NCBI GenBank assembly: GCA_038087875.1
Contig: CM075991.1
Span: 1,736,001-1,800,000, forward strand
Origin: Malacoraja senta
Lineage: Eukaryota
Direction of reading: 5' to 3'
DNA length: 64,000 nt
In this document: one piece after another, positions 1 through 39,477 of the stretch
How positions within the stretch are numbered: the stretch's first letter is position 1
Layout of the letters: each line of letters begins with the position of its first letter
Position numbers and translations under genes: made by a program
The notes under the pieces: generated by a model
Database searches by the model: none
What the model was told of the DNA's origin: nothing
The model's input: only the letters and a program-made list of their open reading frames with translations

Positions 1-3000
1 TGAGGAAGTATTAACTAATTGAAGCATCCTCTCCCATTTCTCTATAGATAAAGAAATTTGATGTTCTCTTACCCAGTCATTCTTAATTTTATCAAATGTA
101 TCTTTTTTAAATTTCAAAATCAACTCAAATAGTCGTTATTAAACCCTTCTGATAAAGGTTCAAATGTAAATTTTTTCCCAAAATTTCGGTTTGATGTGGT
201 AACGGAAAAAAGGGTAGAGTAGCCCTCAAAAAATGTATAATTTGTAGATATCTAAAAAAATGTGAGCTAGGTAGATTATATTTATTGGAGAGTTGTTCAA
301 AAGACATAAAACAACCATCCAAAAACAAATCACGAAAAGCTACTAATCCCTCTTCCATAACAGAAAGGCTTGATCAGTGCTAGAAGGTTGGAAGAAAAAA
401 TTTGATATGATGGGACTCGATAAGATAAAATCATTCAATCCAAAAATTGAAACCATATTCGGTGTAAATGTCTTAATATTGTGTTAGTCGTATATTTATT
501 CAATCTCGTAATTGTAAAAGGTAATGAGGCCCCCTAGAATAGAAGCCAATGATAGCCCTTGCATAGAGTCACGTTCAAGATTTATCCATCGTGGACATTG
601 GGTATCTTCTAAATCTTTTCTCCAAAACGTTAAATAGCGAGCATTAACTGGCCAATGGTAAAATCTAAGATTCAGCAGTGCCAAACCACCATCTTTTTTT
701 GATTTCTGTAAGTATTTTTTACTTAGTCTGGAATTTGTATTCTGCCATATATATAAGGAAATTTCGGAGTCAATAATATCAAAGAAAGATTTAGAAATAA
801 AAAATGGTATAGTCTGAAATAAATATAAAAATTTAGGTAAGATAAAAATTTTAATAGCATTGATTCGGCCTATTAGAGATAAGGACATTGGTGACCATTT
901 AGTGAACTGTTGTTTAATGTGTTCAATTAAAGGCGTAAAATTGGCTTTAAATAAATCCTTGTGTTTCTTAGTAATCTTAATGCCTAAATAAGTAAAACAT
1001 TCGGTAGTCAATCTAAATGGAAACTCTCCATAATTCGAAACTAAATTGTTTAATGGAAAGAGCTCACTCTTACTAAGATTTAGTTTATAACCAGAAAAAC
1101 TACTAAATTGATTAAGTAAAGCTACTGTTACTGGAATAGATTTCTCAGGGTTAGAAATGAATAATAACAGATCATCTGCATAAAGAGATAGCTTATGTGT
1201 CTTATTCCCACGGACAATACCAGAAATATTGGGGGATTCCCTAATAGCGGTGGCCAGAGGTTCCAAAGCGAAATCAAACATAAAGGACTTAAAGGACAGC
1301 CCTGTCTAGTACCTCGAAAGTTCCTGAAAAAAGGGAATCTCTGATTATTGGTAAGTACAGAAGCCAGATGTATATGATATATCAGCTTGATCCAAGAAAT
1401 AAATTTTGGACCAATCTTAAATTTTTCAAGAGTATTGAATAAGTATTCCCATTCTACTCTATCAAACGCCTTCGCAGCATCAAGTGAAATGACACATTCC
1501 TAAGTTTTATTTGACACTATATACAATATTCATTAATCTCCTAACGTTAAAGTATGAGTAACGATTTTTAATAAAACCTGTCTGATCTTCAGAAATAATT
1601 TGCGGTAAAATATTTTCCAATCTCATTGCTAATATTTTCGAAAGAATTTTGGATTCTACACTTCTATAGGATCTTTATCTTTTTTAAGAATTAAAGAAAT
1701 AGATGATTCATAAAAAGATTGTGGTAATCTATTCATTATAAAGGCTTCTTTAAAAACCTTGCATAGCCAGGGAGACAGTAAACTTGAGAAATACTTTAAG
1801 AATTGCAATGTGAATCCATCTAAACCAGGAGCTTTACCAGAATTCATCAAAAGGATTGCTTTCTGCATTTCTTCCTCCATGATGGGTTCATCTAACTACA
1901 GAGACTCATTAAGTGGTAAATTTGGCAAGTTCAGTTTCTTTAAGAACTCGGTATAGAGAGGTATAGAATTCCCGATTTATTAATTTCATCATGGTCTACA
2001 GTCAATGTACCATCCCGTTTACTCACTTTAGTAATCTGACGTTTGGCCGACACTGCTTTCAACTGATTAGCGAGTAATTTACCAGATTTTTCGCCATGTA
2101 TATAAAATTGACTTTTGGTTTTAAGTAGCTGGTTCTCAATTGGTAATATTAATAACAAATCATGTCTCAATTGAAGTTCAACTCTATTCTTATAAAGCTC
2201 TAAACTAGGAGCTTTTGAATATATATTTTTATCAATTTCTTTAATCTCATCAGCCAATATACGTATTTCATTTTGAGTTTGTTTTTTTAATCCCGCGGAG
2301 TATGAAATAATTTGTCCACGAATATATGTCTTAAAAGCATCCCAGACTACACCATTGGATATTTCTTAAGTAGAATTTGTTAAGAAGAAAAAAGCAATCT
2401 GATCTGTAATAAAATTAACAACATTTAGATCTTGAAGCAAAGTAGCATTAAATCGCCATTGTTTAGCACTAAACTTGGAATCAGGTAGTTTGGTTGATAG
2501 TTTCAATGGTACATGATCAGAAATAGCAATTGCATCATACACACATGCAGTGACCGATGAAACTAGCCGAGAATCTATTATAAAGTAGTCAATCCTAGAG
2601 TATCTATGATATACATGAGAGAAAAAATGAAATTCTTTGTTATTTGGGTGTAAGAATCTCCAGACTTCTAACATTCCAGAGTCAAGTAAAAAAGAATTGA
2701 TAAAACTAGCTGATTTATTTGGAAGCATGTGATCAGATGCAGATCTGTCCATCGAGGAGTTCAAACAGCAGTTAAATCTCCACCCATTATTTTAAAATGT
2801 TCATTTAAATTAGGAAAGGATGCAATTAACTTTAAAAAAACTCAGGGTGATCGATATTAGATGCATAAACATTCACCATGGCAACTTTGTGTTATGAAGA
2901 ACACCAGTAATCACCAAAAATCTACCATATGGATCAGAAATTGCTTCATAATGAACAAACGGAATTGAGGAGTCAATAAAAATATAGACTCCTTTCACCT

Positions 3001-3198
3001 TAGCCTGTGAATTTGAATGAAACTGCTGTCCTCTCCAAAACTTGAAAAATCATTGATTGTCATCTTGCCTTACATGGGTTTCCTGAACAAAGATAATCTG
3101 AGCATCTAGTCTACAAAGAACTTGAAAAAAAAATTCCTCTTAATAGGATGGTTCAAACGATTCACATTCCATGAAAGAAAGTTAATAACTTTATCCAT
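1..3198 (-). pseudogene. L1 ORF2p (endonuclease + reverse transcriptase), disrupted
   Basis: ORF fragments 2764-2366, 2257-1940, 1880-1656, 1281-496 and 358-125 carry collinear EN/RT motifs. Confidence 0.9.
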
Positions 3199-3633
3199 AC
3201 TGTTTGTGAAAATCATGTGGAGTGTAAAGGGTTAATTTTTTTAAGCATAATTTTTCATGATACTGGAAGGAGAAAAATCTAGGGCGGAGCCAGAAGTGAT
3301 GACATTTCAGACATTTTTGTAGTTCAGATTCGGCACAGATAAAAAAAATCTGAGCTAAAGGCGGAAGAAGCGGAAGACACCTAACCCCCCCCCCCACCCA
3401 TGCAAAGCCTGAAACTGAGCAGTAGACAGTCAGTACGCTACCTAATCCCTTCCCTACCCCCCATCTCCTAACGGCAGCACCCAACGTAAAAAGAAGGCAT
3501 ATTTACCACTCAATAGACAAAACAAAATTAATGTTATGGTTAAAAAGTATATGTTAACTGTGGAACACAAGAGCTACTTCATATTATTTATCCAAGGTCA
3601 AAATATGAAAAACAAGAACTGCATTCACTTTGT

Positions 3634-3761
3634 TGTAAAAGAAGGAACTGCAGATGCTGGAAAATCGAAGGTACACAAAAATGCTGGAGTAACTCAGCGG
3701 GTGCTTTCCTTCACTCCATAGATGCTGCTGCACCCGCTGAGTTTCTCCAGCATTTTTGTGT
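3634..3761. mobile_element. Miniature Penelope-end fold-back insertion in the L1 inter-ORF spacer
   Basis: Penelope terminal sequence (aagaaggaactgcagatgctggaaaatcgaag...) plus an inverted partial copy, flanked by the 17-bp direct repeat aactgcattcactttgt (3617-3633, 3762-3778). Confidence 0.85.
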
Positions 3762-4036
3762 AACTGCATTCACTTTGTCTAAAATCAGGGGAAAAAAATC
3801 CTTCACTTTTAAAAATGGAAAGGCTAACAAAGAAAATCTTAAAAATTAATATATAATAAGATTACATTAAATTAACAGTATCTTAGAGAAGGAAATGTTG
3901 TTGTTTGATACCATCATACTAAAATTCTAAAAAGTAAATTAAAAAACCCCCAACTCTTCCAATTAAAGTCTTAATCATTACAAAACGATATATTGCCAAA
4001 ATAGGAACAGTAAATCTCCAATTATAACTTAATCAG

Positions 4037-4847
4037 CTATGAATAGCTCCCGGTCGCGGCATCACCCTCATAAGCCTCCAGAAAGCTGGAAGCGTCTTGA
4101 GCATTGTTAAAAAATTGAATGTTACCATTAAAGAGTCGTATATGCAGTCTAGCTGGATAAAGTAAGGCAGGGCGCAACTTTTTCTTAAACAACTCAGACA
4201 TTACATTATGGAAAGACTTTCTTAATTCTAAAAGCTCATGACTGTAACCAGGAACAAACCAAAACTTGCATTCTTCATATTCAACCATGCCCAACTCTTT
4301 TGCTGCCTGGAGGATATTCTCCTTCATCTGCAAGAGGTGAAACCGAACAATCAAATGTCTCGGTTTATCTTGGGGACCAGATTTCTTCCCGATGTGCGTT
4401 ATCCAAAAATGGAAGATTTTAATAGTGCTTGATGTTGAAAGTCTCCTTTATCATTTTAGAAGCATATTTTATGACATTATCTCCTTCTTGACCTTCCGTC
4501 AAACCAACAACTCGCAAATTTATTCGACGGCTTCTGTTTTCCAGATCCATATTTTTAATCTTGTATTGCTGGAGTGCCCGAGTATTTTCATTCTTTCTCC
4601 GTTCCAGTTTTTCAATCTTCAAATCTCTCTCCTGGCCCAGGGTTCGCAAGTTATCAATTTGTTCCTTCTGTTCACGAGATTCATCTTGTAACATAATAAG
4701 CTTGTCTTGAACATCCTTCAATTTGCTCGAAATTCTTTTCACCATTTCTTCTAAACTGCAAAATCTTGTTTTCATTTCATTTTTCAGTTCATTGTTCATT
4801 TTCGATATTACTTCTAAGATACCAGTCAGAAGCTGTGCCTTTCCCAT
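4037..4847 (-). pseudogene. L1 ORF1p (coiled coil + RRM/CTD), frameshifted
   Basis: Two ORF pieces with L1 ORF1 motifs LENRSRRINLR and LLYPARL. Confidence 0.85.
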
Positions 4848-5040
4848 GCTTCTTTCCCTCTTGTCTCCATCCTTAACACGATTAAAGTGTTTAAAAGTGT
4901 TATCAACACTTTAAGAAAAGTTAGACCGTGTCTTGAAATCAAGTAATTACAAGTAACATTGAAAGAGTGGTAAGTAAAAGTTAAAAGTTAAAAGAGCAAA
5001 CCAATTTGCAACCTTACAGCACGCCGCCACTAGCAGAGTC

Positions 5041-6410
5041 TTGACAACATCCTTGTACACGTAAATCTCTACATTCTTTCTAGTTTAACAACATCTTCTA
5101 TAGCTGGGTGACCAACTCTGATCACAATACTCCAACTGTGGCCTCACTGGCACCCTTTTTGACCACCTTGTCAACCTGTGCTACCAATTTCAATGAACTA
5201 TTCACCTGCATTCCGAGATCTCTGCTCTGCAGAACTCCCGAGTCCTGACATTTATATAGAAGATCTTGTCCCGATTAGTGTTCCCGAAATGCTGTACCTC
5301 ACATTTATCTGCATTAAACTCTATTAACCATTCTTCTACCCCCAAGATCCTGCTGCACTTTTTGACAACTATTTTCACTGTCTACAATACCAGCCACTTT
5401 AATGTACTCTGCAAATTTATTGACCATGCCTTGTAAGTTCACATCCAAATTGTTGATGTGACAGCAGACAGCAGTGGATCCAGCACCAATCCTTGAAGCG
5501 CGTCACTAATCAGAGTCCTCAAGTCCAAAAAACAATGTTCCACCATCACCCTCTGTTTCCTTCCATGAAGCCAGTTTTCTATCCAGGCCATTAGCTCTCT
5601 TTGGATCCCATGCAATCTAACCTTCCAGAACAACTACCATGCGGAACCTCATCAAATGCCTTGCTGAAATCTATGTAGAAAATGTCTACAGCTCTGCCAT
5701 CAACCTTTCTGGTTACATAGAGTCAAACAGTGATGCAGTGTGGACACAGGCCCTTCGGCACAACCTGCCCACACCGGCCAACAATGTCCCAGCTACACTA
5801 GTCCCACTTGCCTGCGCTTAGTCTATATCCCTCCAAACCTGTCCTATCCATGTACCTGTCTAAATCTTTTCCCGTTCAAATTGAACCTATGCCATCTGGT
5901 CCTCAATTCCCATACTCTGGGCAAGAGACAATGCATCTACCTGATCTATTCCTCTCATGATTTTGTACACCTCTATAAGATCGCCCTACTCAACCTCTCT
6001 CTATAGCTCGCACCCTCCAGTCCTGGCAACATCCTCGTAAATCTTTTCTGAAACCTTTCAAGCTTGACAATATCTTTCCTATTACATGGTGCCCAGAACA
6101 GAACACAATGTTCTAAATGCGGTCTCACCAACATCTGCAACATGACCTCCCAACTTCAATACTCAATACTCTGATTGATGAAGGCAAAGTGCCAAAAGTC
6201 TTTTTGACCATCCTACCCACCTGCGACTCGACCTTCAAGGAACCATGCACCTGCACTCCTAGACCCCTCTGCTCTACAACACTACCCAGATACCTATCAT
6301 TTACTGTGCAGGTCCTGCCCCTGTTCGACGTCCTAAAATGCAACACCTCACACTTCTCAGTATTGAATTCCATCAACCATTCCTCCGCCCACCTGGCTAA
6401 TTGATCCATA
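5041..6410 (-). mobile_element. Decayed CR1-clade LINE 3' fragments
   Basis: Translations WIENWLHGRKQRV and WAEEWLMEFNTEKCEVLHF are typical CR1 RT C-terminal motifs. Boundaries approximate. Confidence 0.8.
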
Positions 6411-14342: not shown

Positions 14343-15122
14343 GTAACCTCGCTTAACTTTCACTGCGTTAAGAGTGCGGCTACTGAGACTGATTGTTACT
14401 GAAGACCTTTAATGCTACTTGCGATGTGACTGCAGTCTACAGACGGAGTGACGATCAGTAATGTCCCTGAAGCGCGCAGTGTGGGGAATCGACTCTGCTG
14501 ACATGGTTCCCGGTTCCAAGCGGGTTCCCCCTGCTCATCCCACTGTGGAGACCCAGTCCGGATCTTTCACCTTTGGCGTCCAATTCCAGGAATGCCTTCA
14601 CACCTCTAACACGTTTGGGTTCCATTGCCCGTCACATGAGCTTTGAGTACAGTGGGGCACTGACCCGCGCAGCTCATCAGCCGCTCTCCCGAGAATAAAA
14701 ACGAACCCGCAGCTGCACTTGGAGACACAAGGAACTGTAGATGCAGGTTTATAATAAAAATCACAGTGCTGGAGTAACTCGGTTGGACAGGCAGCATCTC
14801 AGGAGAACATGGGTGGGTGTCCGCTGAGTTACTCCAGCACTCTGTGTCCGCAGCTCACCCTGCCTGCTCGGGCGCCGCTTTCATCCCAAGAATGACCGGG
14901 TGATCCCGGTTCTCCGGACGGTTACCAGCTTACTGACTATTGTTGACACTGTTAACAGTTCATTCGGGGTCTGCCGCTCCCGTTGAACATTCCGTGGTAC
15001 ATGTGGACTTTGAATGGTTGGAGCTAGGGGTGGCTGGGAGCGCGGTGTGCGGGGCGCCGACTGACCCGCGGCTCAAACCGGCGGTAACGTTTGTTCTTCT
15101 ATTTTCTGTTCTTTGCTTTCAG

Positions 15123-15437
15123 AAAGCGTGAAGTTGAGGCTGGTGAACGGGGGCAGTCCATGCGCCGGGAGAGTGGAGGTTCACTACATGGGGAAGTGGG
15201 GGACTGTGTATGATCACAGCTGGGACCTGGATGACGCGACGGTGGTGTGTCGGGAGCTGGGCTGCGGCGCCGCGACGGGAGCCCCGGGCGGTTCTCACTT
15301 TGGACCGGGGTCCGGACCCATTGTGACAGGGAATGTTGGGTGCAGCGGGAGCGAGGCCGCTCTGCGGGAGTGTAAATCACCGCCATGGGGGGAATATAGC
15401 GATCCACACTCCCGGGACGCCGGCGTTATCTGCGAAG
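15123..15437 (+). CDS. SRCR domain exon 1 (6 Cys; lacks the C2/C7 pair)
   Basis: 315 nt, ag|...|gt, phase 1/1. LRLVNGGSPCAGRVEV...WGTVYD...VVCRELGC...DAGVICE. Confidence 0.95.
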
Positions 15438-15745
15438 GTAAACATCAGCTTTTTCTCTCTTTGTTCCGCAGTTTGGTGATTTCGGGGATGCCCTCGATGT
15501 AAATTACTCGGACTGACCGCCCGCGGCGAGTGGTGTGAAATTAAATCCAGTGTCTGTCGGTTTTATTCCTTTCCAATTGGAATCAAATTTCGCTTCTGGA
15601 TCTCACATTCTCGTTTTAATTAAACAAACACAACGGGAGCATTAAATACTCTCACCCGGTACCATGACGGGGCCAAGAAACAAGCGGCTGGAGGAACTGA
15701 GTTGGTGAAGCAGCAACTGTCGGGGACTGGTGGCAAGAGAGGAAT

Positions 15746-16974
15746 AGGGCGGTTGCACGTAACGTCATCGGGTCAAAGGGCGTGACACACGGAGCAGCTG
15801 CAACCATGTGGAGGACATGGCAGCCTTGGCACACACTGTTAACACACGAAACGCGTACTTTCTTACCTGTTAAAACCGCCGAAATGGTCAATTTTTGGGA
15901 TGTAAATAATTATGGAAACCGGGGTAACCATGAGAGACATTTATCCTACTTCAGAATTCCATAAGCGAAGAGAAATGATGGTAGAGATAAGCGACAGCTG
16001 AAGGGACAACAACAGCAAAAGTGGTTGGCGAACATTGGCCGTGCAGATATCAAGATTGAAAATATTGGGAATTATCGCGTTTGCTCACTGCATTTCATCA
16101 ACAGTAAGGCATTATTTGCGGTTTTTCTTGATTCCTTTGGTATCTAAACCGTTTCAGAAGTGATAAATCTGGCTGTAAATTTTTTAAATCGCCCATGGTT
16201 CTCAAGTGGGTTTTTACATGCACAAAGAAAATGCTTCTGAAGCTAAATTTATCATTTAAAAAATCGCAAACCATACGTGGGTTTTCAATTACATTTTACT
16301 CAAATGCAAGCCAAGGAATGGCATAATTGTCAGCTGTTAAATGGACATAATCAAATTCAGCAAATTGACAATATATTTGAAAGGGAGTGGGTGTTTCAGC
16401 TGTCAGGACATTTTATTATTTGCCAAAATATACATCTCAATAGCATAATGATAGAAAACATACTTTTTCACACACCACTCATAAGTATGGAGATTATTTT
16501 AGTGTTAAATTTAGCTTCAGAAGCGTTTTCTTTTAAAATGTTACAGTCAGATTTATCACGTTTGAAACTTTTTATATAGCAAAGGAATCAAGAAAAAACA
16601 CAAATAATGCCTTTCTGTTGATGAAATGCAGGGAGCAAACGTGATAATTCCCAATATTTTCAATCTTGATATCTGCACGGCCAATGTTCGCCAACCACTT
16701 TAGCTGTTGTTGTCCCGTCAGCTGTCGCTTCTCCCTACCATCATTTCTCTTCGCTTTTGGAATTCTGAAGTAGGATAAATGTCTCTCACGGTTACCCCGA
16801 ATTCCACAATTATTTCCAGCGCAAACATTGACCATTTTGGCGGTTTTCAACAGGTAAAAAAGTACGCGTTTCGTGTGTTAATTGTGAATGCAGAGGCTGC
16901 CATGTCCTCCAGACGGATTGAGCTGCTCCGTGCGTCACGCCCTTTGACCCGAAGACCTTACGTGTAACCCCCCT
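15746..16974. mobile_element. Non-autonomous fold-back DNA transposon with ~470-500-bp inverted arms, each carrying a THAP-domain exon (ISL2EU/Harbinger-like)
   Basis: Termini AGGGCGGTTGCACG and (reverse complement) AGGGGGGTTACACG, with AT on both flanks (15744-45, 16975-76). Arms ~15746-16251 and ~16506-16974. Confidence 0.8.
16572..16835 (-). CDS. THAP zinc-finger DNA-binding domain ORF (transposase N-terminus)
   Basis: MVNVCAGNNC...FRIP...KWL...VCSLHF matches the C2CH THAP signature with conserved P, W and F. Confidence 0.8.
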   Translation of the reverse strand: MVNVCAGNNCGIRGNRERHLSYFRIPKAKRNDGREKRQLTGQQQLKWLANIGRADIKIENIGNYHVCSLHFINRKALFVFFLDSFAI

Positions 16975-17089
16975 ATTATCAACACTCTCAGTCCCGCTGC
17001 AGGGGCTCGACCCCGAACGTTTATAGTTCTCCCCCTTAGATGCTGCTCGACCCGCTGAGATGCTCCAGCAGTTTGTTTTTATTTGCACC

Positions 17090-17700
17090 AAGTTCAAGGT
17101 CTGTCTCACGAATCTGCGGTCATTGGCGGCGAAACGGGAAGAATCTGCCGCCATAGACCGCGCACTCGTGAGAACGTACAATTCCCGGGCCGTGTTCCCA
17201 ACACCGCGCGGTGCTAAAATAAAACCGACAATGTCGAAAACACTATACTCACCGCACAACCTCCACCAGTGATGCACAAGTGCGGCACGGCCGCTCGCAC
17301 GGGCCGCCGCCAGTGTGGGTCGAGCGCCGTGCGTCAAACCTCCTCTGCCACAGCCGCCGCCAGTGAGGCACGTGCCGCCGCCAGTGAGGCACGTTTGCTG
17401 CGCGGCCGCAGGCACAGCCACCGCTACAGCGCCGCGATCAGGATGGCCGCCGCCACAGCCGCCGCTGGTGAGTCACGTGCGGGGGGCCGACGTCATCGCA
17501 GTCGGCCCGCCCTTTTTTTACTTACCGCAAGCACGTGGGACCCGCCGTGTTTGAATCACTCGGCCCCCGCGCAACATCCGTGCGACGCTCCGGTGGATAG
17601 GCTCGACGCTCTCGCCGTTGCCGCGCGGTCCTCGCTACCGGCGACGTCGCGCTTCACCGCCGATGACCGCAAACAGGTAAGACACGGCTTCCTTTCTTTT
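17090..17700. promoter_or_regulatory. CpG-island-like GC-rich segment inside an intron
   Basis: Dense CpG and GCC triplets, CACGTG E-boxes, short direct repeats gccgccgccagtgaggcacgt. Confidence 0.5.
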
Positions 17701-18206
17701 CCTTCATCTGCCGTCTCTCGTCAATAGTGCTTTTTATTGTCAGATATATTAATTGTTAACACAGTGACATTATTTTCCTTACAAACAGTCCAGTGGAGTA
17801 TTACCATACCTCTGATCCCCAATTAGTAAGTGTACAGGAATCATCTACTGAGCCACATGCAGGAGGAGCCATGTTCTGGCGCCATGTTCAAAATCCATGC
17901 TCTAGTTCTAACGAGCGGTGCCAGTTCCTGGCAAGTCCCAGGCTGTTGCTGGCCTCCAGCCGCCTCCTTCCTTGGATGCCACGTCGCTCTCTTCACCCGT
18001 CCTTTGTTGCCCAGGGTGCCTCCCGCAGCCGATCACGAGGGCGGGGTAAGCCAGACCCTGGTTCCCTCTCCTTTCCTCTCCAACTGGCCTCGCTCCTCGC
18101 CCGGACATCACTGGCTCCATCCTCCCGGTCCCTGCTCTCCTTCAGACGAGCAGAGGGCAGCACAGCAGCTCCCCCCTTCCCGGTCAGCGGTTCCCTGTGT
18201 CCGACA

Positions 18207-18552
18207 AACGAGACTAGATGCACGAAAAATGTTCCCCATGTTGGGGAAGTCCAGAACCAGGGAGTCACAGTTTAAGAAGAAGAGGGAGGCCATTTGGGAC
18301 TGTGATGAGGAATTTTTTTTTCACCCTGAGACTTGTGAATCTGTGGAAATCTCTGCCACAGAGGGCAGTGGAGGCCAATTCATTCGATATTTTCAAGAGA
18401 GATTTACCTCTTCGGGCCAAAGAAATCAAGGGATATGGGTAAAAAGCAGGAACGGGGTATAGATTTTGAATGGTCAACCATGATCATATTGAATGACCAA
18501 ACGACCTACTCCTGCACCTATTTTCTCTGTTTCTATGTCTATGTTTCTATGG
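18207..18552 (+). mobile_element. CR1 3' end fragment
   Basis: RLDARKMFPMLGKSRT; tail tttctatgtctatgtttctatg matches the tail of the long CR1. Confidence 0.88.
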
Positions 18553-20259
18553 AAGGTCTGTACCTTCATTAACCTGGCAGAGAAAGTGCAATGCAATTCG
18601 TTCAGGCTTTGTACCGAAATGAAGTGTCGCAGTCACAGAGGGAATGAACGAATAATGTGCTAGAGGAAATGGTTATGGTGCTGGATATGGAGTCAGTAAG
18701 TGAACAGCTTTCTCCTGATTGTTCTCAAACTTCCTGCGTATTATCAGAGTTGACACATGAAAGCCTCCCTGGACATTCCTGAACGCTGCCTTTTAAATGA
18801 CAGAAAGATGTTGAGGAACCAACAGATGAGCATTTGAAGATAGACACAAAAAGTTGGAATAACGCAGCAGGACAGGCAGCATCTCTGGAGACAAGGAATG
18901 GGTGATGTTTCGGGTCGAGACCCTTCTTCAGACCCGAAATGTCTCCCATTCCATCTCTTCAGAGATGCTTCCTGTCTCGCTGTGTTTCTCCAGCTTTTTG
19001 TGTCTGTCTTCGATTTAAACCATCATTTGCAGTTCTTTATGTAAGAAGGAACTACAGATGCTGGTTTAAACCAAAGATAGTCACAAAAATCGGGGTATAG
19101 TGGGACAGGCAGCATCTCTGGAGAGAAGGATTTGGTGATGTTTCCGGTGGCGACACTTGTCACTCTGCAGTTATGTGCAATGTCTGGTTCAGCTTTGGTC
19201 ACTTTATCTCCCATGTTACAGGTACAGTGATGTAGTGGCTCAGAATGTCAAAGCGACTTGTGTGGCATAAAAGCAATGCGCCAGCATGAGTGCTCGCCTG
19301 ATTACTATCAAGGCTTTGCATCCCTTTTTCGAGAAATTAGAACAGAAATGAGCATTGTGGAAAACATCAGTAATGTCTAGCTACTTATGAAAAGATGGAA
19401 AAATGTCTTTGAAAATGAAACTAAGCAGTGATTGCCTTTATATCCTTCACCGTCTCTCTCGTCTCATTATGGAAAATGTCTTCTGTGAGGTCACATAAGG
19501 CCACTGTGAGGTTTGCACCTCCCTGGTTCTGACAAAATCACATCTTACAGTCTGAAGAATGGTCCTTAACCAATCCGGATTTGATTGGCCTCAGTATTGG
19601 GGAAGGAGGGAAATGTCCCGATGGACGGACCCCACTTGAACCCTGCTGGTACCAGGGTCCTGGGGAAGCGCATAACTGGGACCGTAGGCCGTAAATAGTG
19701 GGAGGAAAGGGAGGGGTTAACAAATTGGAAATGTACGGATGAAGCTAAAGCGAGGGAAATTGCAGGAGGAATTGCTGAAGAGTCTAGAAGTAAGAGGGTA
19801 GAAATTTAAGAAGTGATAAGTGCCTAATGTCAGCCAAAATGTGGACCAATGTGAGAAGAAGGGTAGTGAATACTGAACTAAAGTTGTTACATTCGAATGC
19901 CCACATTAAATGGAACTAAGTGAATGAGCGTATAGCTCAGGTAGAAGTTGGTAGGCATTCGATGGTGGGCATCACAGAGATGTGGATGAAAGAGGATCAG
20001 AGCTGTGAATGGAATATCCAATGTTACACATCCTATCCAAATGACAGACAGGTGGGCAGAGGAGGTGAGGTAGCTATTCTGGTCAGGAATGAAATGTAGT
20101 CCTCAGCAAGGGAGGACAGAGGATGAGAAGATGTAGAATCCTTGTAGGTAGAACTAAGAAACTGCAAGGGTAACATGAGCCTGATGGGAGTTATATCGAC
20201 TCTGGACAGTAGCCAGGATTGAGGGTACAAATGACATCATGTGATACAAGAAAGCCAGT

Positions 20260-21450: not shown

Positions 21451-21883
21451 ACCACTCGTTTCGGCTCACAAGGCTCCTATTAGCCCAGAAACCAGTCCCT
21501 TTTGCCCAACATGCCCGTATTACCCCAGGAGGAGCATTTCGGCCCAAAAGGCCTGTGCCAAGCCAGGAAAAGTCCAGAAAAAGTGCCTTTCACTGTGATT
21601 TCACTCTTTTTTTATTTTAAATACCGCTTATGCCCAACAGGCCTGTACTAGCCTAGGAGGAGTCCCTTTGGCCCATCAGTAGGTATTCCCTCTGTAAGTA
21701 TTAAACCTTACCCCAGTATTTTTCTCCCTCCCTTTATTGGCTCCCTGTGAGATCCAGGCCAGGATAGACTTTCCTCCTTCATTGCTGTGATCTGCAGAAA
21801 AAGATGAAAAATGTCTAAAATTGATTCTCCCCTTCTCTCTCACAGTCTCTCACCTGTTTTGGGCAGAATTTCTGGCAGTTTCT

Positions 21884-22488
21884 GAGCTGCCAGCCCACCA
21901 GCCCTGAGTGACTGATCTACCAGCCCACCAGCCCCGAGTGGCGGAGCTGCCAGCCCACCAGCCCTGAGTGACTGATCTGCAGTCCACCAGCCCTGAGTGA
22001 CTGATCTGCCAGCCCACCAGGCCTGAAAGACTGAGCTGCCAGCCCACCATGCCTGAGTGACTGAGCTGCCATTCCACCAGGCCCGAGTGAGTGAGCTGCC
22101 AGCCCACGAGGCCTGAGTGACTGAGCTGCCAGCCCACCAGGCCTGAGTGACTGAGCTGCCAGCCCACCAGGCCTGAGTGACTGAGCTGCCAGCCCACCAG
22201 GCCCGGGTGAGTGAGCTGCCAGCCCACCAGGCTTGAGTAACAGAGCTGCCAGCCCACCAAGCCTGAGTGACTGAGCTGCCAGCCCACCAGGCCTGAATGA
22301 CTGAGCTGCCAGCACATCAGACCTGAGTGACTGAGCTGCCAGCCCACCAGGCCTGAGTGACTGAGCTGCCAGCCCACCAAGCCTGAGTGACTGAGCTGCC
22401 AGCCCACCAGGCCTGAGTGACTGAGCTGCCAGCCTACCAGGCCTGAGTGACTGAGCTGCCAGCCCACCAGGCCTGAGCTGCCAGCCCA
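21884..22488. repeat. 30-bp minisatellite, ~20 copies (GAGCTGCCAGCCCACCAGGCCTGAGTGACT)
   Basis: Read directly; it produces the periodic ORFs (LVGWQLSHSG)n and (PGGLAAQSLR)n on the minus strand. Confidence 0.95.
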
Positions 22489-24435: not shown

Positions 24436-24646
24436 TTAAGAAGGAACTGCAGATGCTGGAAAATCGAAGGTAGACAAAAATGCTGGAGAAACTCAGCGGG
24501 TGAGGCAGCATCTATGGAGCGAAGGAAATAGGCGACGTTTCGGGTCGAGACCCTTCTTCAGACTGAAGAAGGGCCTCGGCCCGAAACGTCGCCTATTTCC
24601 TTCGCTCCATAGATGCTGCCTCACCCACTGAGTATCTCCAGCATTT
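24436..24646. mobile_element. Palindromic Penelope-end insertion with two divergent hammerhead cores
   Basis: ~84-bp arms (24478-24561 and 24563-24646) inverted about base 24562. Confidence 0.85.
24563..24590 (+). ncRNA. Minimal type-I hammerhead ribozyme core (PLE-associated)
   Basis: CTGAAGA-A-GGGC-CTCG-GCCC-GAAA-CG-TC. A mirror copy lies on the minus strand at 24534-24561. Confidence 0.65.
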
Positions 24647-24959: not shown

Positions 24960-25950
24960 GGCTCAGTGAAACTTGAAAGACCTGGATAGAGTGGATATGG
25001 AGAGGATGTTTCCATTTCTGGGAGTGTCCAGGACTAGAGGATGCAACCTCAGAACAAAAGAATGTACCTTTACAAGTTCACGCGATAAGAGTAGAATTAC
25101 GCCATCGAGTCCACTCCGCCATTCAATCATGGCTGATCTCTGCTTCCGAATCCCATTTTCATGCCTTCTCCCCATATCCCTTGACACCTAATCAAGAATT
25201 TGCCTATCTCTGCGTTAGAAATATCCACTGACGTGGCCTCCACAGCCCTCTGTGGCAACACAGTTTAACTACCCTCCTCAACTGCTTGCTAAAAGAGCGC
25301 CCTTTAATTCTGAGGCTATGATCCCAGGTCCCAGACGCTACCACCAGTGGAAACATCCTTTCCACATCCACTCTATGCTTTTCATTATTCTGTAAGTTTC
25401 AATGAGCCCCCCCCCTCAACCTTCTAAACTCCAACGAGTAGAGGCCAATAATGTCAAACGCTGAGCATTTGTTAACACACTCATTCCGGGAATCATTCTT
25501 ATAAACCACTGGACCATCTCCAGAGCCAGCACATTCCTCAAAAAATGGGGTCCAAATTTACTCACAAGAGCATTTGCTTAGAAAGGAGATGAAGAGGAGT
25601 TTCTTTGGTCGGTGTGGAGAACCTGTGGAATACATTGCCACAGACTGCTATGGAGGCCGTGATTGAGTTTCTTTAAGAAGGAACTGCAGATGCTGGAAAA
25701 TCGAAGGTAGACAAAAGTGCTGGAGAAACTCAGCGGGTGCAGCAGCATCTATTAGATTCTCCAGCACTTTTGTCTACCTTTGAGTTTCTTTAAAGCAGAA
25801 ATTGATAGATTCTTGATTAGTAAGGATATCAATGTTTATGGGTAGAAGGCAGGAGAATGGCGTTGAGATGGAAAGATAGACCAGATTGAGTGGCGCAATA
25901 GACTCGATGGGCTTAATGGCATAATTCTGCCCCTGTGACTTATGAACTCA
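24960..25950. mobile_element. CR1 3' fragments: a plus copy interrupted by a minus copy and by a Penelope mini fold-back at 25677-25779
   Basis: LDRVDMERMFP...SRTRG. The mini insertion is flanked by the 14-bp repeat ttgagtttctttaa (25663-76, 25780-93). Confidence 0.7.
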
Positions 25951-27559: not shown

Positions 27560-29330
27560 CAGAGAGCATCATAGATAGGAGGTTCAGTGAGGTGAGCACA
27601 AACAAGGTGCACATGGTGGGAGCTGGGTGACCACCAGAAAAGACTGATCGGATAGGTAGAGCAATCAGGATTCCTCTGTCATGATTCCCCTCACTAACAA
27701 ATATATTGGTTCACAAAAATGCCACAAAGTGTTGGAGTAACTTAGCTGGTCGTACAGCACCCCTGGAGAACATGGATAGGTGACGATTTAGTGCGGGACC
27801 TGAGTCTGAAGAAGAGTCCTGGTCTGAAACGTCACCTATCCACGTCCTCCAGAGAAGCTGCCTGACCTGCATAGTTACTCCAGCACTTTGTGTCTTTTTT
27901 GAATATCATATTTGGCACAGTTAGAGAGGAGCAGCAGCTACCTTGTCTGTGGCACGGTAGCTGGCTTCAATTCTCATCAGGGGCGGGTGGAGACAGGGAA
28001 AGCTATAGTATTAGGATCCTCGATAGTTAGAGTGACAGCAGGAGATTCTATAGTAGCAAATGAGATACCATGACGTTACTTTGCCTTTAGGGTGTCACAG
28101 TCAAGGATGTCTCTGAGCGGTTGCAGAAAATACTCAAGTGGAAATGTGAGCTGCCAAAGCTCGTTGGACATATTTTGTTTCAAACGACAAAGGTAGGAAA
28201 AGGAACAAGGTCCTGCAGTGTGGATAAAGGAAATTAGTTTGTTTAGTTTATTGTAACGTGTAGGTATAGTAAAAACAAATATTTTGTTGTATGTTATCGA
28301 GTCAGTGGACACACAGATCTCATGGGCAGTAATCTCTGGATTAATTCAGGTGTCTAGTGCCAGCGGGAAGAGGAAGAGAAGCGCCGGACAGGTGAATACG
28401 TGACTGAGGGGCTGGTGTTCAAGTATTTGGAACATTGGCAACTCTTCTGGGGTGACCTGTACAGGAGAGGTGTGTGGCACCTGAGCTAGAGCGGGAGAAA
28501 TAGCCTGGCAGAGAGATATGCTGATGCTACATAGGAGGGTCAACTTAGTGTGTCAGGACTATGGGACTCAAATCAGTGGTGAGGTAGATAAGAAGGTTGA
28601 GACAAGTACAAGTTGAAGCGAACAAGTTTGGCAGACAGTTCTTGCACGTACATGGCAGGGAACGAGAAAGGTCTGTGTGGGAAGGAACTGCAGATGCTGG
28701 TTTAAACCGAACATAGACACTAGATGCTGGAGTAACTCAGCAAGACAGGCAGCATCTCTGGAGACAAGGTCTCCAACGAGAATGGTCTGATGGTTTAACC
28801 TGCATTTATTTCAATGCCGGACTGACAGAGGAATTCGGGAATTGGGTTGAAACACGAGGATGGAATACAATAGCTCATGGTGTGGTTCATGGCGTCAGGA
28901 CACTCAGCTCAATGTTCCGGGGCAGAAGCGATGGACCTGGAGGTAAGATTCAAGGGGAGCTTTTACCGCGGGACCAGGGTGATAATGCCGATAGCATGGT
29001 CAGTAACTTCGAAGATGACACTGACATTGGTAGTAGAGTGTACAGTGAAGAAGGATATCTAGAATTTCAACGGAGTTTTATAAACGGGGTCAATAGGCTG
29101 ATGAACGGCAACGGTAGATAATTGTGAGATGGTGCATTTTGCAGAGCAGGACCAAAGCAATAAGGTCCTGGACAGTGTTGTCGAACAGAGAGACAAAGGG
29201 GTGCAGGTACACAGTTCCATGAAGGTGGCCTAACGGCCCCGGGAAGACAGGGTGGTGCAGAAAGCTTTTGGCAGGCTTGCCTTCATCAGTCATGGTATTG
29301 TGCAGAGGAGTTGGAACGTCATGTTACAGC
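27560..29330 (+). mobile_element. Highly decayed CR1 pieces with Penelope-end insertions
   Basis: ORF1-esterase-like and RT-like remnants (SNFEDDTDIG). Penelope ends at ~27710-27900 and ~28680-28770. Confidence 0.55.
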
Positions 29331-30176: not shown

Positions 30177-30398
30177 TTGCTTCCAGTTCCTCGTGCTGGC
30201 GAGAGCAGGAACAGGGAGATACGGGACCTGAATGTGTGGCTGAGGAACTGGTGCAGGGGGCAGGGATTTAGATTCTTAGATCACTGGGATCTGTTTTGGA
30301 GTAAAAGGGAACTGTACAAAAGGGACGGATTGCATCTTAACAGGTGGGGGACCAGCATTCTGGCAGGCAGGTTTGCCACTGCTACACGGGTGGTTTAA
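30177..30398 (+). CDS. CR1 ORF1 C-terminus (SGNH/GDSL esterase-like), 5'-truncated
   Basis: LNVWLRNWC...FLDHWDLF...DGLHLN. Confidence 0.75.
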   Translation: MLPVPRAGESRNREIRDLNVWLRNWCRGQGFRFLDHWDLFWSKRELYKRDGLHLNRWGTSILAGRFATATRVV

Positions 30399-33300
30399 AA
30401 CTGAATAAGGGGGGTGGGGTGTCGAATGGGATAGTTGAGGATGGAGTTAAAGGGAAAGGGTTTCTTAAATGTGTGAGCGTAGAGACAGAGGGATGTAAAA
30501 TGAAGGTAGAAGCAATAGGTAGCAAGATGAAAAGTAAAAGTGGCAGGCAGACAAATCCAGGGCAAAAATCTAAAAGGGCCACTTTTCAACATAATTGTAT
30601 ACGGGGTAAGAGTGTTGTAAAAACAAGCCTCAAGGCTTTGTGTCTCAATGCAAGGAGCATTCGTAATAAGGTGGATGAGTTGAATGTGCAGATAGCTATT
30701 AATGACTATGATATAGTTGGGACCACGGAGACATGGTTCCAGGGTAACCAAGGCTGGGAGCTGAACATCCAGGGATATTCAATATTCAGGAGGGATGGAC
30801 AGAAAGGGAAAGGAGGTGGGGTAGCGTTGCTGGTTAGAGAGCAGATTAACGCAATAGAAAGGAAGGACATTAGCTTGGAGGATGTGGAATCGATATGGGT
30901 AGAGCTGCGAAACACTAAGGGGCAGAAAACGCTAGTGGGAGTTGTATACAGGCCACCTAACAGTAGTAGTGGAGTTGGGGATGGCATCAAACAGGAAATT
31001 AGAAATGCGTGCAACAAAGGTAAAACAGTTATAATGGGTGACTTCAATCTACATATAGATTGGGTGAATCAAATTGGCAAGGGTGCTGAGGAAGAGGATT
31101 TCTTGGAATGTATGCGGGATAGTTTTCTAAACCAACATGTAGAGGAACCAACGAGAGAGCAGGCTATTCTAGATTGGGTATTGAGTAATGAGGAAGGGTT
31201 AGTTAGCAGTCTTGTTGTGCGTGGCCCCTTGGGCAAGAGTGACCATAATATGGTTGAGTTCTTCATTAGGATGGAGAGTGACATTGTTAATTCAGAAACA
31301 AGGGTCCTGAACTTAAAGAAAGGTAACTTTGAGCGTATGAGAAGTGAATTGGCCAAGATAGACTGCCAATTGATTCTTAATGGGTTGACGGTAGATGTGC
31401 AATGGAAGGCATTTAAAGACTGCATGGATGAACTACAACAATTGTTCATCCCAGTTTGGGGGGAAAAAATCAGGGAAGGTAGTGCATCCATGGATAACAA
31501 GGGAAATCAGGGATAGTATCAAAACAAAAGATGAAGCGTACAAATTAGCCAGAAAAAGCAGCCTACCAGAGGACTGGGAGAAATTCAGAGTCCAGCAGAG
31601 GAGGACAAGGAGCTTAATTAGGAAAGGGAAAATAGATTATGAAAGAAAACTGGCAGGGAACATAAAAACGGACTGCAAAAGCTTTTATAGATATGTGAAG
31701 AGAAAAAGATTAGTTAAAACAAATGTAGGTTCCTTGCAGTCAGAAACAGGTGAATTGATCATGGGGAACAAGGACATGGCAGACCAATTGAATAACTACT
31801 TTGGTTCTGTCATCACTAAGGAAGACATAAATAATCTGCCGGAAATAGCAGGGGACCGGGGGTCAAATGAGATGGAGGAACTGAGTGAAATGCAGGTTAG
31901 CCGGGAAGTGGTGTTAGGTAAATTGAATGGATTAAAGGCCGATAAATCCCCAGGGCCAGATAGGCTGCATCCCAGAGTACTTAAGGAAGTAGCCCCAGAA
32001 ATAGTGGATGCTTTAGTGATAATTTTTGAAAACTCTTTAGATTCTGGAGTAGTTCCTGGGGATTGGAGGGTAGCTAATGAAACCCCACTTTTTAAAAAGG
32101 GAGGGAGAGAGAAAACGGGGAATTACAGACCAGTTAGTCTAACGTGGGTAGTGGGGAAACTGCTAGAATCAGTTACTAAAAATGGGATTGCAGCACATTT
32201 GGAAAGTGGTGAAATCATTGGACAAAGTCAGCATGGATTTATGAAAGGTAAATCATGTCTGACGAATCTTATAGAATTTTTCGAGGATGTAACTAGTAGA
32301 GTGGATAAGGGAGAACCAGTGGATGTGTTATATCTGGACTTTCAGAAGGCTTTCGACAAGGTCCCACATAAGAGATTAGTATACAAACTTAAAGCACACG
32401 GTATTGGGGGTTCAGTATTGATGTGGATAGAGAACTGGCTGGCAGACAGGAAGCAAAGAGTAGGAGCAAACGGATCCTTTTCACAATGGCAGGCAGTGAC
32501 TAGTGGGGTACCGCAAGGCTCAGTGCTGGGACCCCAGCTATTTACGATATATATTAATGATTTGGACGAGGGAATTGAATGCAACATCTCCAAGTTTGCG
32601 GATGACAGGAAGCTGGGGGACAGTGTTAGCTGTGAGGAGGATGCTCGGAGGCTGCAAGGTGACTTGGAGAGGCTGGGTGAGAGGGCAAATGCATGGCAGA
32701 TGCAGTATAATGTGGATAAATGTGAGGTTATCCACTTTGGTGGCAAAAACAGGAAAGTAGACTATTATCTGAATGGTGGCCGATTAGGAAAAGAGGAGAT
32801 GCAACGAGACCTGGGTGTCATGGTACACCAGTCATTAAAAGTAGGCATGCAGGTGCAGCAGGCAGTGAAGAAGGCGAATGGTATGTTAGCATTCATAGCA
32901 AAAGGATTTGAGTATAGGAGCAGGGAGGTTCTACTGCAGTTGTACAGGGTCTTGGTGAGACCACACCTGGAGTATTACGTGCAGTTTTGGTCTCCTAATC
33001 TGAGGAAAGACATTCTTGCCAAAGAGGGAGTACAGAGAAGGTTTACCAGACTGATTCCTGGGATGTCTGGACTTTCATATGAAGAAAGACTAGATAGACT
33101 CGGTTTGTACTCGCTAGAATTTAGAAGATTGAGGGGGGATCTTATAGAAACTTACAAAATTCTTAAGGGGTTGGACAGGCTAGATGCAGGAAGATTGTTC
33201 CCGATGTTGGGGAAGTCCAGAACAAGGGGTCACAGTTTAAGGATAAGGGGGAAATTTTTTAGGACCAAGATGAGGAAAACATTTTTCACACAGAGAGTGG

Positions 33301-33434
33301 TGAATCTCTGGAATTCTCTGCCACAGAAGGTAGTTGAGGCCAGTTCATTGGCTATATTTAAGAGGGAGTTAGATGTGGCCCTTGTGGCTAAAGGGATCAG
33401 GGGGTATGGAGAGAAAGCAGGTACAGGATACTGA
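30344..33434 (+). CDS. CR1 ORF2 (APE endonuclease + reverse transcriptase) with one frameshift near 31460
   Basis: LNARSI, TETW, YRPP, MGDFN, SDHN in the first frame; KSPGPD, NYRPVSL, QHGF, YLDFQKAFD, GVPQGSVLGP, FADD in the second. Confidence 0.93.
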
Positions 33435-35890: not shown

Positions 35891-36502
35891 AAAATATTTT
35901 TAACCTCAATTGCACTTGGAAGACAGAGATCAGTTGTTGACATTTATTTTGAGAAGGGCTTATAAAAATGCTTCAATGCAATTCAGTGTCATTCCATTTT
36001 GATGCTTAAGAAGGAACTGCAGATGCTGGAAAAATCGAAGGTAGATAAAATTGCTGGAGAAATTCAACGGGTGAGGCAGCATCTATGGAGCGAAGGAAAA
36101 GGTAACGTTTCGGGTCGAGACCCTTCTTCAGACTGATGTGGGGGTGGCGGGGAAATCAGGTTGGTTATTGCGAACTGAGTGAAGGTGTTGGGCGAAGCGA
36201 TCGCCAAGCCTACGCTTGGTCTCACCGATGTAGTGCAGCGGACACCTAGAGCAGCGGATGCAATAGATGAGTTTGGAGGAAGTGCAGGCTCTGCTACACA
36301 TGGAAAGACTGCTTAGGTCCTTGGATGGAGACAAGGGGGGAGGTAAAATGACACGTGTAGCATTCCCTGCGGTTGCAAGGGAAAGTACCAGGAAATGGGG
36401 TGGTTTGGGAGGGAAGGGGCGAATTGACCAGGAAGTTACGGAGGGAGCGGTCTCTGCGGAAGCCGAAAGGAGAGGAGATGGGAAGATGTGGCCAGTGGTG
36501 GG

Positions 36503-36712
36503 TGCAGAGCCGTGCATGTTCCTTTAACATGGTGACCTCACTTCTACTAACCACTCCCCATTAGCTTCAGTATAAATGTAACCTTCCCACCCCTAGCTCG
36601 CTCTCTAGCTCCGGTAACGGACCACGAACAGCTAGGGCAATATGTGTGTATACGAATACAATGTATGCAATAAACTAGAGTGAAGACACCATGTGTTTGG
36701 ACAGTCTTTACA
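36503..36712 (+). repeat. 5' LTR
   Basis: Matches 39478-39687 at 209/210 positions by eye; contains TATAAA and AATAAA. Confidence 0.95.
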
Positions 36713-36803: not shown

Positions 36804-39140
36804 TATGGCCACCTCGTGTCGAAAGCCTGACGTTCTGGTGTTTGACTCGGACATCGTCCACCGGTGGACTATTTTCCGGCGCGACTTCCAGCACTATGTC
36901 GCCATCGCTCATCCTAATATTACCCCTGCGATTACAGCACATCTGCTCCTCAACCTGGCTGGCCCGGAGGCCATGGAACGTTCTGAATCTTTTGAGTACG
37001 CCGATGGTGAGAATGCAGAGGACCCCGTGTGTGTCTCATCAATAAATTTGCCGCGCTGTGTGACATTCCCACCAACTCCATTCTAGAGCGGTTCAAGTTT
37101 TTCAGCAGGCGCCAGAAACCCGGGGAGCACATCGATACCTTCGTGGCATCGCTGCGTCACCTGGCCCGGCGTTGCCACCTGGAGACGTTGACCCCCGATC
37201 AGTTGATCAGAGATGCCCTAGTTCACGGTCTACAGGACGTGAAGCTACGGGCTGAGCTTCTGAGAAAGCCGGACCTCACTTTAAACGACGCTTTGCATGC
37301 CTCTCGCATGTCTGCTGCTGTCGACGCTGTATCTCCCCCTGAAGCTGAGGACATTAACTATGCCGGTGCTGCTGGACGCCCGCGGCGCGATGGCCCGCCA
37401 CGCCAGCGTAGCACCCCTGCGCCTGCAAGGGTCAACCCTCGCCGATGCCCAAACTGCAACTTTGTCAATCATCAATTTGATGTTTGCCCTGCTCTGGGTA
37501 AGACTTGTAATTTGTGTAAGAAGCTTAATCACTTCTCCGCAGCGTGCCGTTCCAGGGGCCAGCCTGTCCCTGCTCCGAGAAAGAGTCTACACAACCTGAC
37601 TGCTACTGACAGTGTTTATGACTCCGAATACCTTCCAGTCGAACTCCCTGATTCTGATAACAGCTCCTCCCATGATGAATCGCTTGTTTTTTCAGTCCTG
37701 GGTGCACATGCTTTGATAGCTGATCCATCAGTTCGAGTTACTGTGAATGGGATGACCTTCTCTGCTAAAGTAGATACGGGGGCGTTTACGAATATTATGT
37801 CGTTAAGTCTTTTTCAACAGATAAGAGCTGGTGAGAAGATTACCGCTGATCACTCCCGCCTCCGTGCATATGGGGGGAGCATGCTATTCCCAGTCGGCAA
37901 GGCCACCCTTATCTGCTCAGTTCTGAAGGCCTCTCGGCCCCTCTCTTTCCTCCTGCTGGAATCTGAGAATGTTACTCTGTTGGGCGCCCGTGCGTGCCAG
38001 GACCTCGGTTTGTGTCCTTCCACCACGACATCCACCCGGTGCAGACCCCCATGGATCCCATGTGCGAGTACCCCGACCGTTTTGACGAAGTATTGGGCAA
38101 ACTACCCTGCAAGTACGAAATCGAGGTGGACCCGGAGGTCCATCTGGTAGTCCGCCCTCCTCACCGCGTCTCCTTTGCTATGAAGGACAAGGTGGAGTCC
38201 ACTTTACGCCAGATGGTGGCCATGGGCATCATCAAGGAAGTGAGCGATGCCACCCGGTGGGTCTCCACCATGGTCGTTGCTGCTAAGAAGGACAAGAGTG
38301 AGATTCGGATCTGTATCAACCCCAAGGACCTAAAGCTTGCCATCAAGCGCCCGCACTACCCCATGCGAACGGTGGAGGATGTCGCTGCAAAGGTTGGCCC
38401 GGCCACTGTATTCTCTGTCCTCGATGCCAAGAACTCTTTCTGGCAGATTCCGCTGGATGAACGTTCATCTTTACTGACCACGTTTGGTACACCTTTCGGC
38501 AGGTTCCGTTTCCTCCGCATGCCTTTCGGGATCAATTCTGCCAGCGAGGTTTTCCAGCGCACCATGGAACAGCTATTTGCAGGTCTGCCGTGTGCTATCA
38601 TCGTTGATGACATCTTGGTGTACGGGAGGGACGTCGCTGAGCACGACCTCCACCTCCGTCTGGTCCTGGATCGGGCTCGGGAAATCAACCTCAAACTGAA
38701 CCCCAAGAAGTGCCGTTTCCGCGTCCCGGAGGTCACCTACGTGGGCCACGTTTTTACGGCTGAGGGTCTGAAACCAGACCCACAGAAGACAGCTGCGGTC
38801 TCAGAGATGCCAGCTCCGGTCAACGTGCCAAGCCTGCAACGCTTCTTGGGCATGATGAACTATCTGGGGAAATTTATTCCCGACCTCAGCGAGCTGAGTG
38901 CGCCCCTGAGGGAACTGACCAAGATGGACACTGCCTGGGTTTGGTACCCGCTGCATCAGGCAGCCTTCGATGACTTGAAATCCCGGCTGGTTCGCACCCC
39001 CACTCTGAAGTTCTTCGACTTAAAGCGCCCTATCGTCATTACCTGCGATGCATCAAGTTTCGGTCTCGGTTGCCGCCTCGTTGCCTCCCGCTCCTCTGCC
39101 CTCGCGACCCTTGGCGCCCCGTTCTCCCGCTGCTCCTCCT
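36804..39140 (+). pseudogene. gag-pol (Gag with two Zn knuckles, aspartic protease, RT, start of RNase H), frameshifted and truncated
   Basis: CPNCNFVNHQFDVC and CNLCKKLNHFSAAC knuckles, KVDTGA, RMPFG, IVDDIL, TCDASSFGLG. Frameshifts near 37030 and 38010. Confidence 0.9.
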
Positions 39141-39477
39141 GACCCCCCCCCATCAGCCATCTCCCGCTCGCGTGCCCGTTGCGGTGCTCTTGTCTCCTCC
39201 CCGGTCTCCTCGTTCTCCCCCTCCTGCTCACTCCCCTTTCGGTTCACCTATCGCCGCTCCTGCCCCGGTGCCCACTCTACCTTCGGAGGGGGGGGGGGGG
39301 GGGGGGAGGCGGGCTGCATACCCGCTCCGGGCGTCTGGTCAAGCCGCCTGAACGTTACGGGGAGTTTGCTTGAATGTTTTAAGTTTTTCCTGACGATGTA
39401 CGCGCGGGTTTGTGCCTAGCGTATGAGTCGTGGTCTCACTGTCATCATTGCTATGTTTCCCTTTTCAAGGGGAAGGA

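Follow-up and report, generated by a model that had tools for sequence, protein, structure and literature searches.

The superfamily of DNA transposons known as ISL2EU (PHIS/Harbinger-like) is described in PMC4482050 as encoding a transposase with THAP, HTH_Tnp_4 and DDE_Tnp_4 domains together with a second open reading frame (ORF) carrying a YqaJ domain, as inserting at an A-AT-T target and as having termini that usually begin with GG. The account in PMC4122938 gives the same architecture. Table S2 of PMC4482050 contains 25 ISL2EU families, none of them from cartilaginous fish, although Leucoraja and Callorhinchus genomes are listed there. ISL2EU is also reported as undetected in elephant shark in PMC9179366, where horizontal entry into teleosts is proposed. 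Of the other superfamilies with THAP domains, Kolobok is defined by a TTAA duplication (PMC9587614), and it is for this definition alone that we draw on PMC5753468, PMC3673617 and PMC9587614. The terminal repeats of Galileo are described as recruiting internal sequence (PMC3573991, PMC4168063). In maize, the Mu killer locus is described as carrying MuDR sequence duplicated in inverted orientation and as producing a hairpin RNA by which the gene for the transposase is silenced (PMC1563492).

Here we analyse a fold-back element in a window of 64,000 nucleotides of Malacoraja senta DNA, the whole stretch that was studied. We estimate a probability of about 75% that it is an aged copy of a non-autonomous ISL2EU family composed of two THAP-side ends placed back to back.

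Architecture, insertion site and decay of the element

Self-alignment and BLAST of the window delimited a fold-back element of 1229 bp at 15746-16974. Its left arm is 520 bp long (15746-16265) and its right arm 483 bp (16492-16974); the two are about 89% alike and flank a spacer of 226 bp (16266-16491). The main arms pair over 15743-16188 and 16531-16977 with 400 of 444 columns matching, 40 mismatched and 4 gapped (BLAST: 89.5% across 447 nt, E 1e-170), and a second block pairs 16224-16265 with 16492-16533 at 37 of 42 positions. About 38 nt of the left arm (about 16185-16222) are missing in the right arm, and the longest perfect run between the arms is 59 bp. A preliminary description of this DNA had reported a 1.23-kb near-palindrome with inverted, THAP-bearing arms, which the alignment and a Pfam THAP match in each arm confirmed; the sizes it gave for the arms (about 470-500 bp) and the spacer (about 250 bp) need the small corrections given above. 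No further copy of the fold-back was found by BLAST within the 64-kb window, and an Rfam scan of 14500-18500 returned no matches. The features of the locus are as follows.

15143-15437, plus strand: host exon encoding an SRCR domain, followed by a GT donor at 15438; the element lies 309 bp downstream
15677-15745, no strand: older palindromic repeat of the host, the half to the left of the insertion, from the joined-flank alignment
15744-15745, no strand: left copy of the putative AT target duplication, in the context A-AT, which fits the A-AT-T target as described in PMC4482050
15746-16974, no strand: whole element, a probable non-autonomous ISL2EU fold-back of 1229 bp (self-alignment, BLAST, reads and end comparison)
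15746-15883, plus strand: terminus of the left arm with a leader of 138 nt; its opening 25 nt resemble the THAP-side end of L040, a related full-length locus
15884-16103, plus strand: exon 1 of the transposase in the left arm, with 73 codons and one further nucleotide, followed by a phase-1 GT donor at 16104
16104-16265, plus strand: left arm, putative start of the parent's intron 1, including the approximately 38 nt with no right-arm counterpart
16266-16491, no strand: AT-rich spacer of 226 bp, repetitive in four other organisms and probably further intron 1
16492-16615, minus strand: right arm intron part, its donor mutated to GA (16615-16614) where the read majority has GT
16616-16835, minus strand: right arm transposase exon 1 with C2CH intact, running into the intron as an 87-aa ORF with its stop at 16574-16572
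16836-16974, minus strand: right arm terminus and leader, closer to the THAP side than to the YqaJ side of L040
16975-16976, no strand: right copy of the putative AT target duplication, in the context AT-T, from the sequence
16975-17080, no strand: right half of the same palindromic host repeat, from the joined-flank alignment

The ends of the element read gaAT-AGGG ... CCCT-ATta, where the hyphens mark its boundaries. Joining the two flanks gave a sequence that aligned, through the junction, with a paralogue at 24477-24642 that has no interruption (66%, E 1e-11). The joined flanks thus form one older repeat, which indicates that the element inserted as a single unit. Had TA been duplicated and the element ended in G..C, the filled site, AAT...ATT, would look identical, and the paralogue that represents the empty site is, at 66%, too degenerate to fix AT against TA. 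The boundaries first proposed, with AG..CT ends under the AT reading, are supported by the match to L040 given below, and the proposed AT duplication is compatible with the site, as is TA.

The repeat that hosts the insertion is an abundant short palindromic one, present at 24478-24646, 18836-19011, 27714-27901, 54934-55048, 25696-25788 and 3669-3765, and it also forms the ends of a second fold-back at 55361-56836. This second element, which we take to be Penelope-like, has 550-bp arms at 94% around a weak GIY-YIG match (E 5e-4, below cutoff), and a related piece lies at 36131-36523. Elsewhere in the window are a tandem array whose period is about 30 bp (21882-22488), a LINE with endonuclease and reverse transcriptase (30341-33434) and an LTR-type reverse transcriptase/RNase H region (37967-39142). 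Further SRCR exons on the plus strand start at about 33.6 kb, making six plus-strand SRCR exons in all. Those at 15143-15437 and 43081-43398 lack the same two cysteines, presumably the second and the seventh, as do some CD163/WC1-type domains.

Each arm contains the THAP-encoding exon of a transposase. The right-arm ORF (ATG 16835, minus strand) has all of C5, C10, P26, W47, C67, H70 and F71 and matched Pfam THAP with 34.1 bits (cutoff 23.9, E 4.8e-08); its splice donor is GA at 16615-16614. In the left-arm ORF (ATG 15884), C5 is changed to Trp and C10 to Tyr, codon 27 is TAA and the donor at 16104 is GT; the piece downstream of the stop scored 26.9 bits, above the curated cutoff. The Pfam comparison that had been suggested was thus positive for both arms. 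It had also been claimed that the left arm lost both N-terminal cysteines and gained a TAA but kept its donor, which we found to be so, and that the right arm has a GA donor and the full THAP signature. The GA donor and the C2CH, P, W and F residues of the right arm are indeed there; the signature is not full. A functional THAP domain is defined by C2CH, the invariant P, W, F and P, and a C-terminal motif, and both the last proline and the motif are missing from both arms, the Pfam match spanning only model positions 1-58 of 87. The domain is incomplete because the last invariant proline sits in exon 2, which is not included in the element: every frame of the spacer was checked and exon 2 is absent from it.

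We compared the arms with related sequence in contigs of four runs from four other organisms, aligned to 16190-17250, a region that takes in the spacer, the right arm and the flank and leaves most of the left arm outside. These runs are not close to the window, the share of words in common with it being 0.22 at most. At 17 of the 19 sites listed the left arm agrees with the read majority and only the right arm differs; at one site both arms share a non-majority letter, and one site falls in a gap. The GA donor is a change private to the right arm, the family majority in the reads being GT. Among the exon differences between the arms, 2 of 15 are synonymous, compared with 21% expected (p 0.75). 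We rejected arm-to-arm conversion because both arms share a non-majority letter at only that one site of the 19 listed, and selection on the THAP exon because the synonymous fraction fits neutrality. The two arms thus appear to have decayed independently and neutrally, by roughly 5% each. That each arm is damaged differently, as had been pointed out, is true as an observation; since the family keeps the GT donor, ordinary neutral decay from one ancestral sequence accounts for it.

These results bear on the suggestion that a THAP-only peptide made from the element occupies its ends in competition with transposase, in the manner of the KP product of the P element. In the right arm a frame of 87 aa is indeed open and encodes C2CH, P, W and F, and as the majority of the family keeps the donor, some copies could splice into host exons. 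The idea is nevertheless weak because exon 1 does not contain the last invariant THAP proline: the frame spans 58 of the 87 THAP model positions, and that proline and the C-terminal motif are encoded in exon 2. In THAP1, mutating any of four invariant residues is described as abolishing DNA binding (PMC3479173). The changes in the exon are moreover neutral, and the left arm is dead. Among proteins of 47-153 aa, no THAP-only candidate resembling the right ORF was found; a protein library clustered at 50% gave 252 matches, and the best 150 of the 252 were all distant (29-60% identity). We therefore consider a KP-like DNA-binding repressor unsupported and a peptide of this kind very improbable.

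An ISL2EU transposase lineage in skates

Searching with the right-arm peptide yielded two proteins among seven candidates, Leucoraja erinacea LOC129707898 (76%) and a Rhinoraja longicauda model (78%). LOC129707898, called P0002 here, contains THAP, HTH_Tnp_4 and DDE_Tnp_4 domains by Pfam, and the same THAP, HTH and DDE_Tnp_4 architecture is shared by the parent-lineage proteins P0002, P0009 and P0128. Between the arms and these three skate transposases, 49-58 of 73 residues are identical (67-79%). The skate proteins track the arm as far as HFIN and then diverge in sequence, which indicates a phase-1 intron at the predicted donor; the donor position predicted earlier is precisely where these transposases leave the reading frame of the arm. 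In a tree of the exon, the two arms were sisters (95/85) inside a skate clade (100/99) and most deeper branches were unsupported; this tree was built from the THAP exon of search hits only.

The little skate, L. erinacea, has five annotated loci of this transposase lineage. Three of them, P0009, P0128 and P0127, are 97-100% alike, and P0009 and P0128 are full length, 100% alike and intact in their D-D-E triad, on contigs that differ in size. This near-identity and the intact triad suggest recent activity, and P0009 and P0128 may be a transposase source in a relative. P0002 and Amblyraja radiata LOC116985328 (P0006) are full-length proteins of ISL2EU type, 95% alike, and in both Lys replaces the catalytic Glu. 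They may represent a domesticated transposase or simply an old shared insertion, as 95% between two close skates may be neutral. P0007 and P0008 are spliced parent-type products on 1.6-kb contigs. In R. longicauda, a single annotation (P0003, XP_078277539.1) fuses the transposase THAP domain and linker to a CDK2AP domain (THAP-CDK2AP1) and is possibly a host-transposase fusion.

Using an alignment of 23 transposases as query, we found 13 related loci in genome contigs. Eight of these were screened for ORFs, and the six with long flanks were examined for ends. Convergent ORFs from relatives at 35-58% identity had a YqaJ domain by Pfam in four of five cases, the ORF of L041 having no YqaJ match, and the fold-back element itself has none. 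The convergent YqaJ ORFs indicate that full-length elements have one THAP-side end and a different, YqaJ-side end. The enclosing repeat starts with AT-AG in five of the six loci examined for ends and with AC in L042. Compared with the window, the THAP-side end of L040 matches the left end of the element at 20 of 25 positions and the right end at 18 of 25, and the YqaJ-side end matches them at 15 of 25 and 14 of 25. Of the 421,428 25-mers in the fetched loci, none but the THAP-side end of L040 reached 19 matching positions against the left end of the element. This match backs the predicted boundaries and indicates that both arms are the same, THAP-side end. Seven of the loci (L033, L035, L036, L038, L040, L041 and L042) are animal-type ISL2EU in contigs labelled as bacterial MAGs, one of them in a 5.2-Mb 'chromosome'; host contamination is the most likely explanation, and horizontal transfer is possible.

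The parent would thus be an ISL2EU (PHIS/Harbinger-like) transposon of skate type with both arms derived from its THAP-side end, as supported by these comparisons. The assignment to this superfamily, one of those the preliminary description had considered, is borne out by the THAP, HTH_Tnp_4 and DDE_Tnp_4 domains of the parent lineage, by YqaJ in its relatives and by the matching ends. An autonomous parent, proposed as the thing to look for, was traced as far as DDE_Tnp_4 transposases in skates and YqaJ ORFs in more distant relatives. One departure is that the element begins with AG under the AT reading rather than with the GG typical of ISL2EU. Since the source says only that termini are 'usually' GG, the AG start marks a subgroup and does not exclude membership. 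RR..YY termini are reminiscent of Kolobok and long terminal repeats of Galileo, and the element could be assigned to Kolobok or P/Galileo on such grounds; the flanks are however GGAAT and ATTAT with no TTAA duplication, the 7-8-bp duplication of P/Galileo is absent, and the parent transposase is DDE_Tnp_4 and not P-type. Membership of either superfamily has next to no chance of being correct.

A probable dispersed family and what it may do

We wished to distinguish a transposed family from a single local event, and the contigs of the four runs bear on this. Between 3600 and 6101 contigs aligned per run, flanking repeats included. At the sites listed, the exon and leader were covered by 24-106 contigs and the spacer by 13-62. 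Summed depth, which is not a copy number, was 3921-25184 in the element's final bin and 22-817 in the one that follows, just past 16981; near the junction of spacer and arm it was 729-5379, compared with at least 33,000 over most of the exon. As depth is lowest at the junction, most of the related sequence is not this exact fold-back. Two X4 contigs (records 17 and 18) bridge the spacer and the right arm. A joint in X7 connects 16254 and 16501 on opposite strands (depth 78, short side 65 nt), passing from spacer to an inverted arm that still carries the segment absent from the window's right arm. In X4, a joint from 16250 to 16700 (depth 213) connects intron sequence to an inverted exon 1, a deleted fold-back form. 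Same-strand joints from 16210-16219 to 16553-16569 were set aside, their short sides being 21-29 nt; local palindromy does not account for them. A separate GC-rich element at 17102-17684, with 38-nt inverted ends and internal 34-nt repeats, has, over its first 160 bp, a summed depth near one million in X1 and hardly any in the three remaining runs, a pattern that is a lineage-specific burst.

The dense coverage of arm and spacer, the drop at the terminus and the bridges across the junction argue that the element is a family member and not a local duplication. Many dispersed copies were seen for parts of the element and not for whole copies: among the contigs of the four runs over 16190-17250, not one extends over this entire region, and no complete second fold-back with both termini and its own flanks was seen. 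A search for the 18-nt terminal pattern gave 32 loci in metagenome contigs, all chance matches of at most 23 nt, and 102 matches in viral contigs, none of them related. It could be argued that two one-ended ISL2EU fragments met head to head, or that one end was duplicated in place, in a one-off event that was never mobile as a unit; a second whole copy was not seen, depth is far higher over the exon than at the junction, and other fold-backs of unrelated repeats in the window suggest that such events are common in this genome. Against this, contigs that bridge the junction occur in runs of other organisms, both ends of the element are complete and flanked by AT, and the flanks rejoin into one older repeat. 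We consider such an accident improbable. The repeated parts and junction contigs place a transposed fold-back family well ahead of it, and the original proposal of a non-autonomous family made from two copies of the parent's THAP-side end is supported by the reads, the lineage and the end comparison.

For this family we propose the following origin. A parent would have been rearranged, either by break repair that copied one end onto the other or by aberrant transposition, such that a second THAP-side end replaced the YqaJ-side end. A short terminal inverted repeat (TIR) common to both parental ends could then have let the transposase and YqaJ proteins of full-length copies move the fold-back in trans. 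One copy would have inserted into an intron of the SRCR gene, probably a transcribed one, and both of its arms would have decayed independently. Where the spacer came from, and what the other end of the parent was, we infer by comparison with distant relatives. The THAP exons are most likely passengers of the duplicated end, and the window copy most likely does nothing today.

The long hairpin that had been envisaged can form, with a predicted fold of -772 kcal/mol. Since any fold-back folds in this way, the energy is not evidence of function. The family might also work as a silencer resembling Mu killer, in which a hairpin of about 480 bp over the leader and exon 1 would give rise to small RNAs that repress full-length ISL2EU; host-gene read-through or the inward promoter of either arm could supply the hairpin. 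The geometry is that described for Mu killer (PMC1563492), the fold energy and the 59-bp perfect run fit such a role, the element sits 309 bp downstream of the SRCR exon donor, and there are the spliced parent-type products P0007 and P0008. However, the arms are about 10% apart without conversion, given the single shared non-majority letter at the 19 sites listed, and an intronic hairpin stays in the nucleus. To our knowledge, vertebrates do not have the RNA-directed methylation route of plants. We regard this silencing role as unlikely. A self-propagating 'killer', with two inward ends that each carry a promoter and exon 1 and a family that would spread on ISL2EU transposase and silence it, is speculative and unlikely. 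In such a family a transcript started at either end would fold into a hairpin directed at the parent's transposase mRNA. This would make it the counterpart in animals of Mu killer, though in many copies, within a lineage of skate ISL2EU whose transposase genes are still intact and near-identical.

The copy in the window is an ordinary decayed insertion, and it is the lineage and the build with two left ends that are of interest. Skates evidently carry their own ISL2EU lineage, as judged from these sequences, and two models that are 100% identical with an intact catalytic triad make a candidate for an ISL2EU that was active recently in a vertebrate. The existence of a family with THAP-side ends on both sides suggests that transposition can do without the subterminal DNA of the YqaJ side. 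Such a family also distributes, across the genome, long hairpins and a THAP exon whose donor is intact, which provides raw material for gene fusions, as in the THAP-CDK2AP1 model, and possibly for silencing. We found no report in the open literature of ISL2EU in skates or of a fold-back of this construction in ISL2EU, and a curated repeat-database entry may exist; ISL2EU in cartilaginous fish and a family that apparently moved with two left ends may be new.

Comparison with known systems

P-element KP retains a complete THAP domain and a dimerisation region. The fold-back resembles KP in being a deletion derivative that retains the N-terminal DNA-binding region and differs from it in that its THAP domain is incomplete. 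The likeness to ISL2EU (PHIS) as described in PMC4482050 and PMC4122938 lies in the domains of the parent, the convergent YqaJ ORFs of relatives and the AAT...ATT flanks. The TIRs of ISL2EU listed in PMC4482050 are 6-259 bp long and usually start with GG, whereas here they are about 480-520 bp, start with AG and contain exon 1.

Like this family, Galileo has non-autonomous fold-backs, and in D. willistoni 69 bp of coding sequence are described as lying inside both repeats (PMC3573991, PMC4168063). Galileo, as described there, differs in belonging to the P superfamily, in its 7-8-bp duplication and in a parent that already has long repeats. Here, by contrast, a whole first exon and leader were duplicated, and the relatives mostly have short terminal repeats.

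Mu killer may be the closest functional model for the fold-back family. Both are inverted duplications of part of an autonomous transposon, and in both a long hairpin against the 5' region of a transposase gene is possible (PMC1563492). Mu killer, in the same account, is a single plant locus with proven silencing, whereas the element described here belongs to what appears to be an old, multi-copy animal family.
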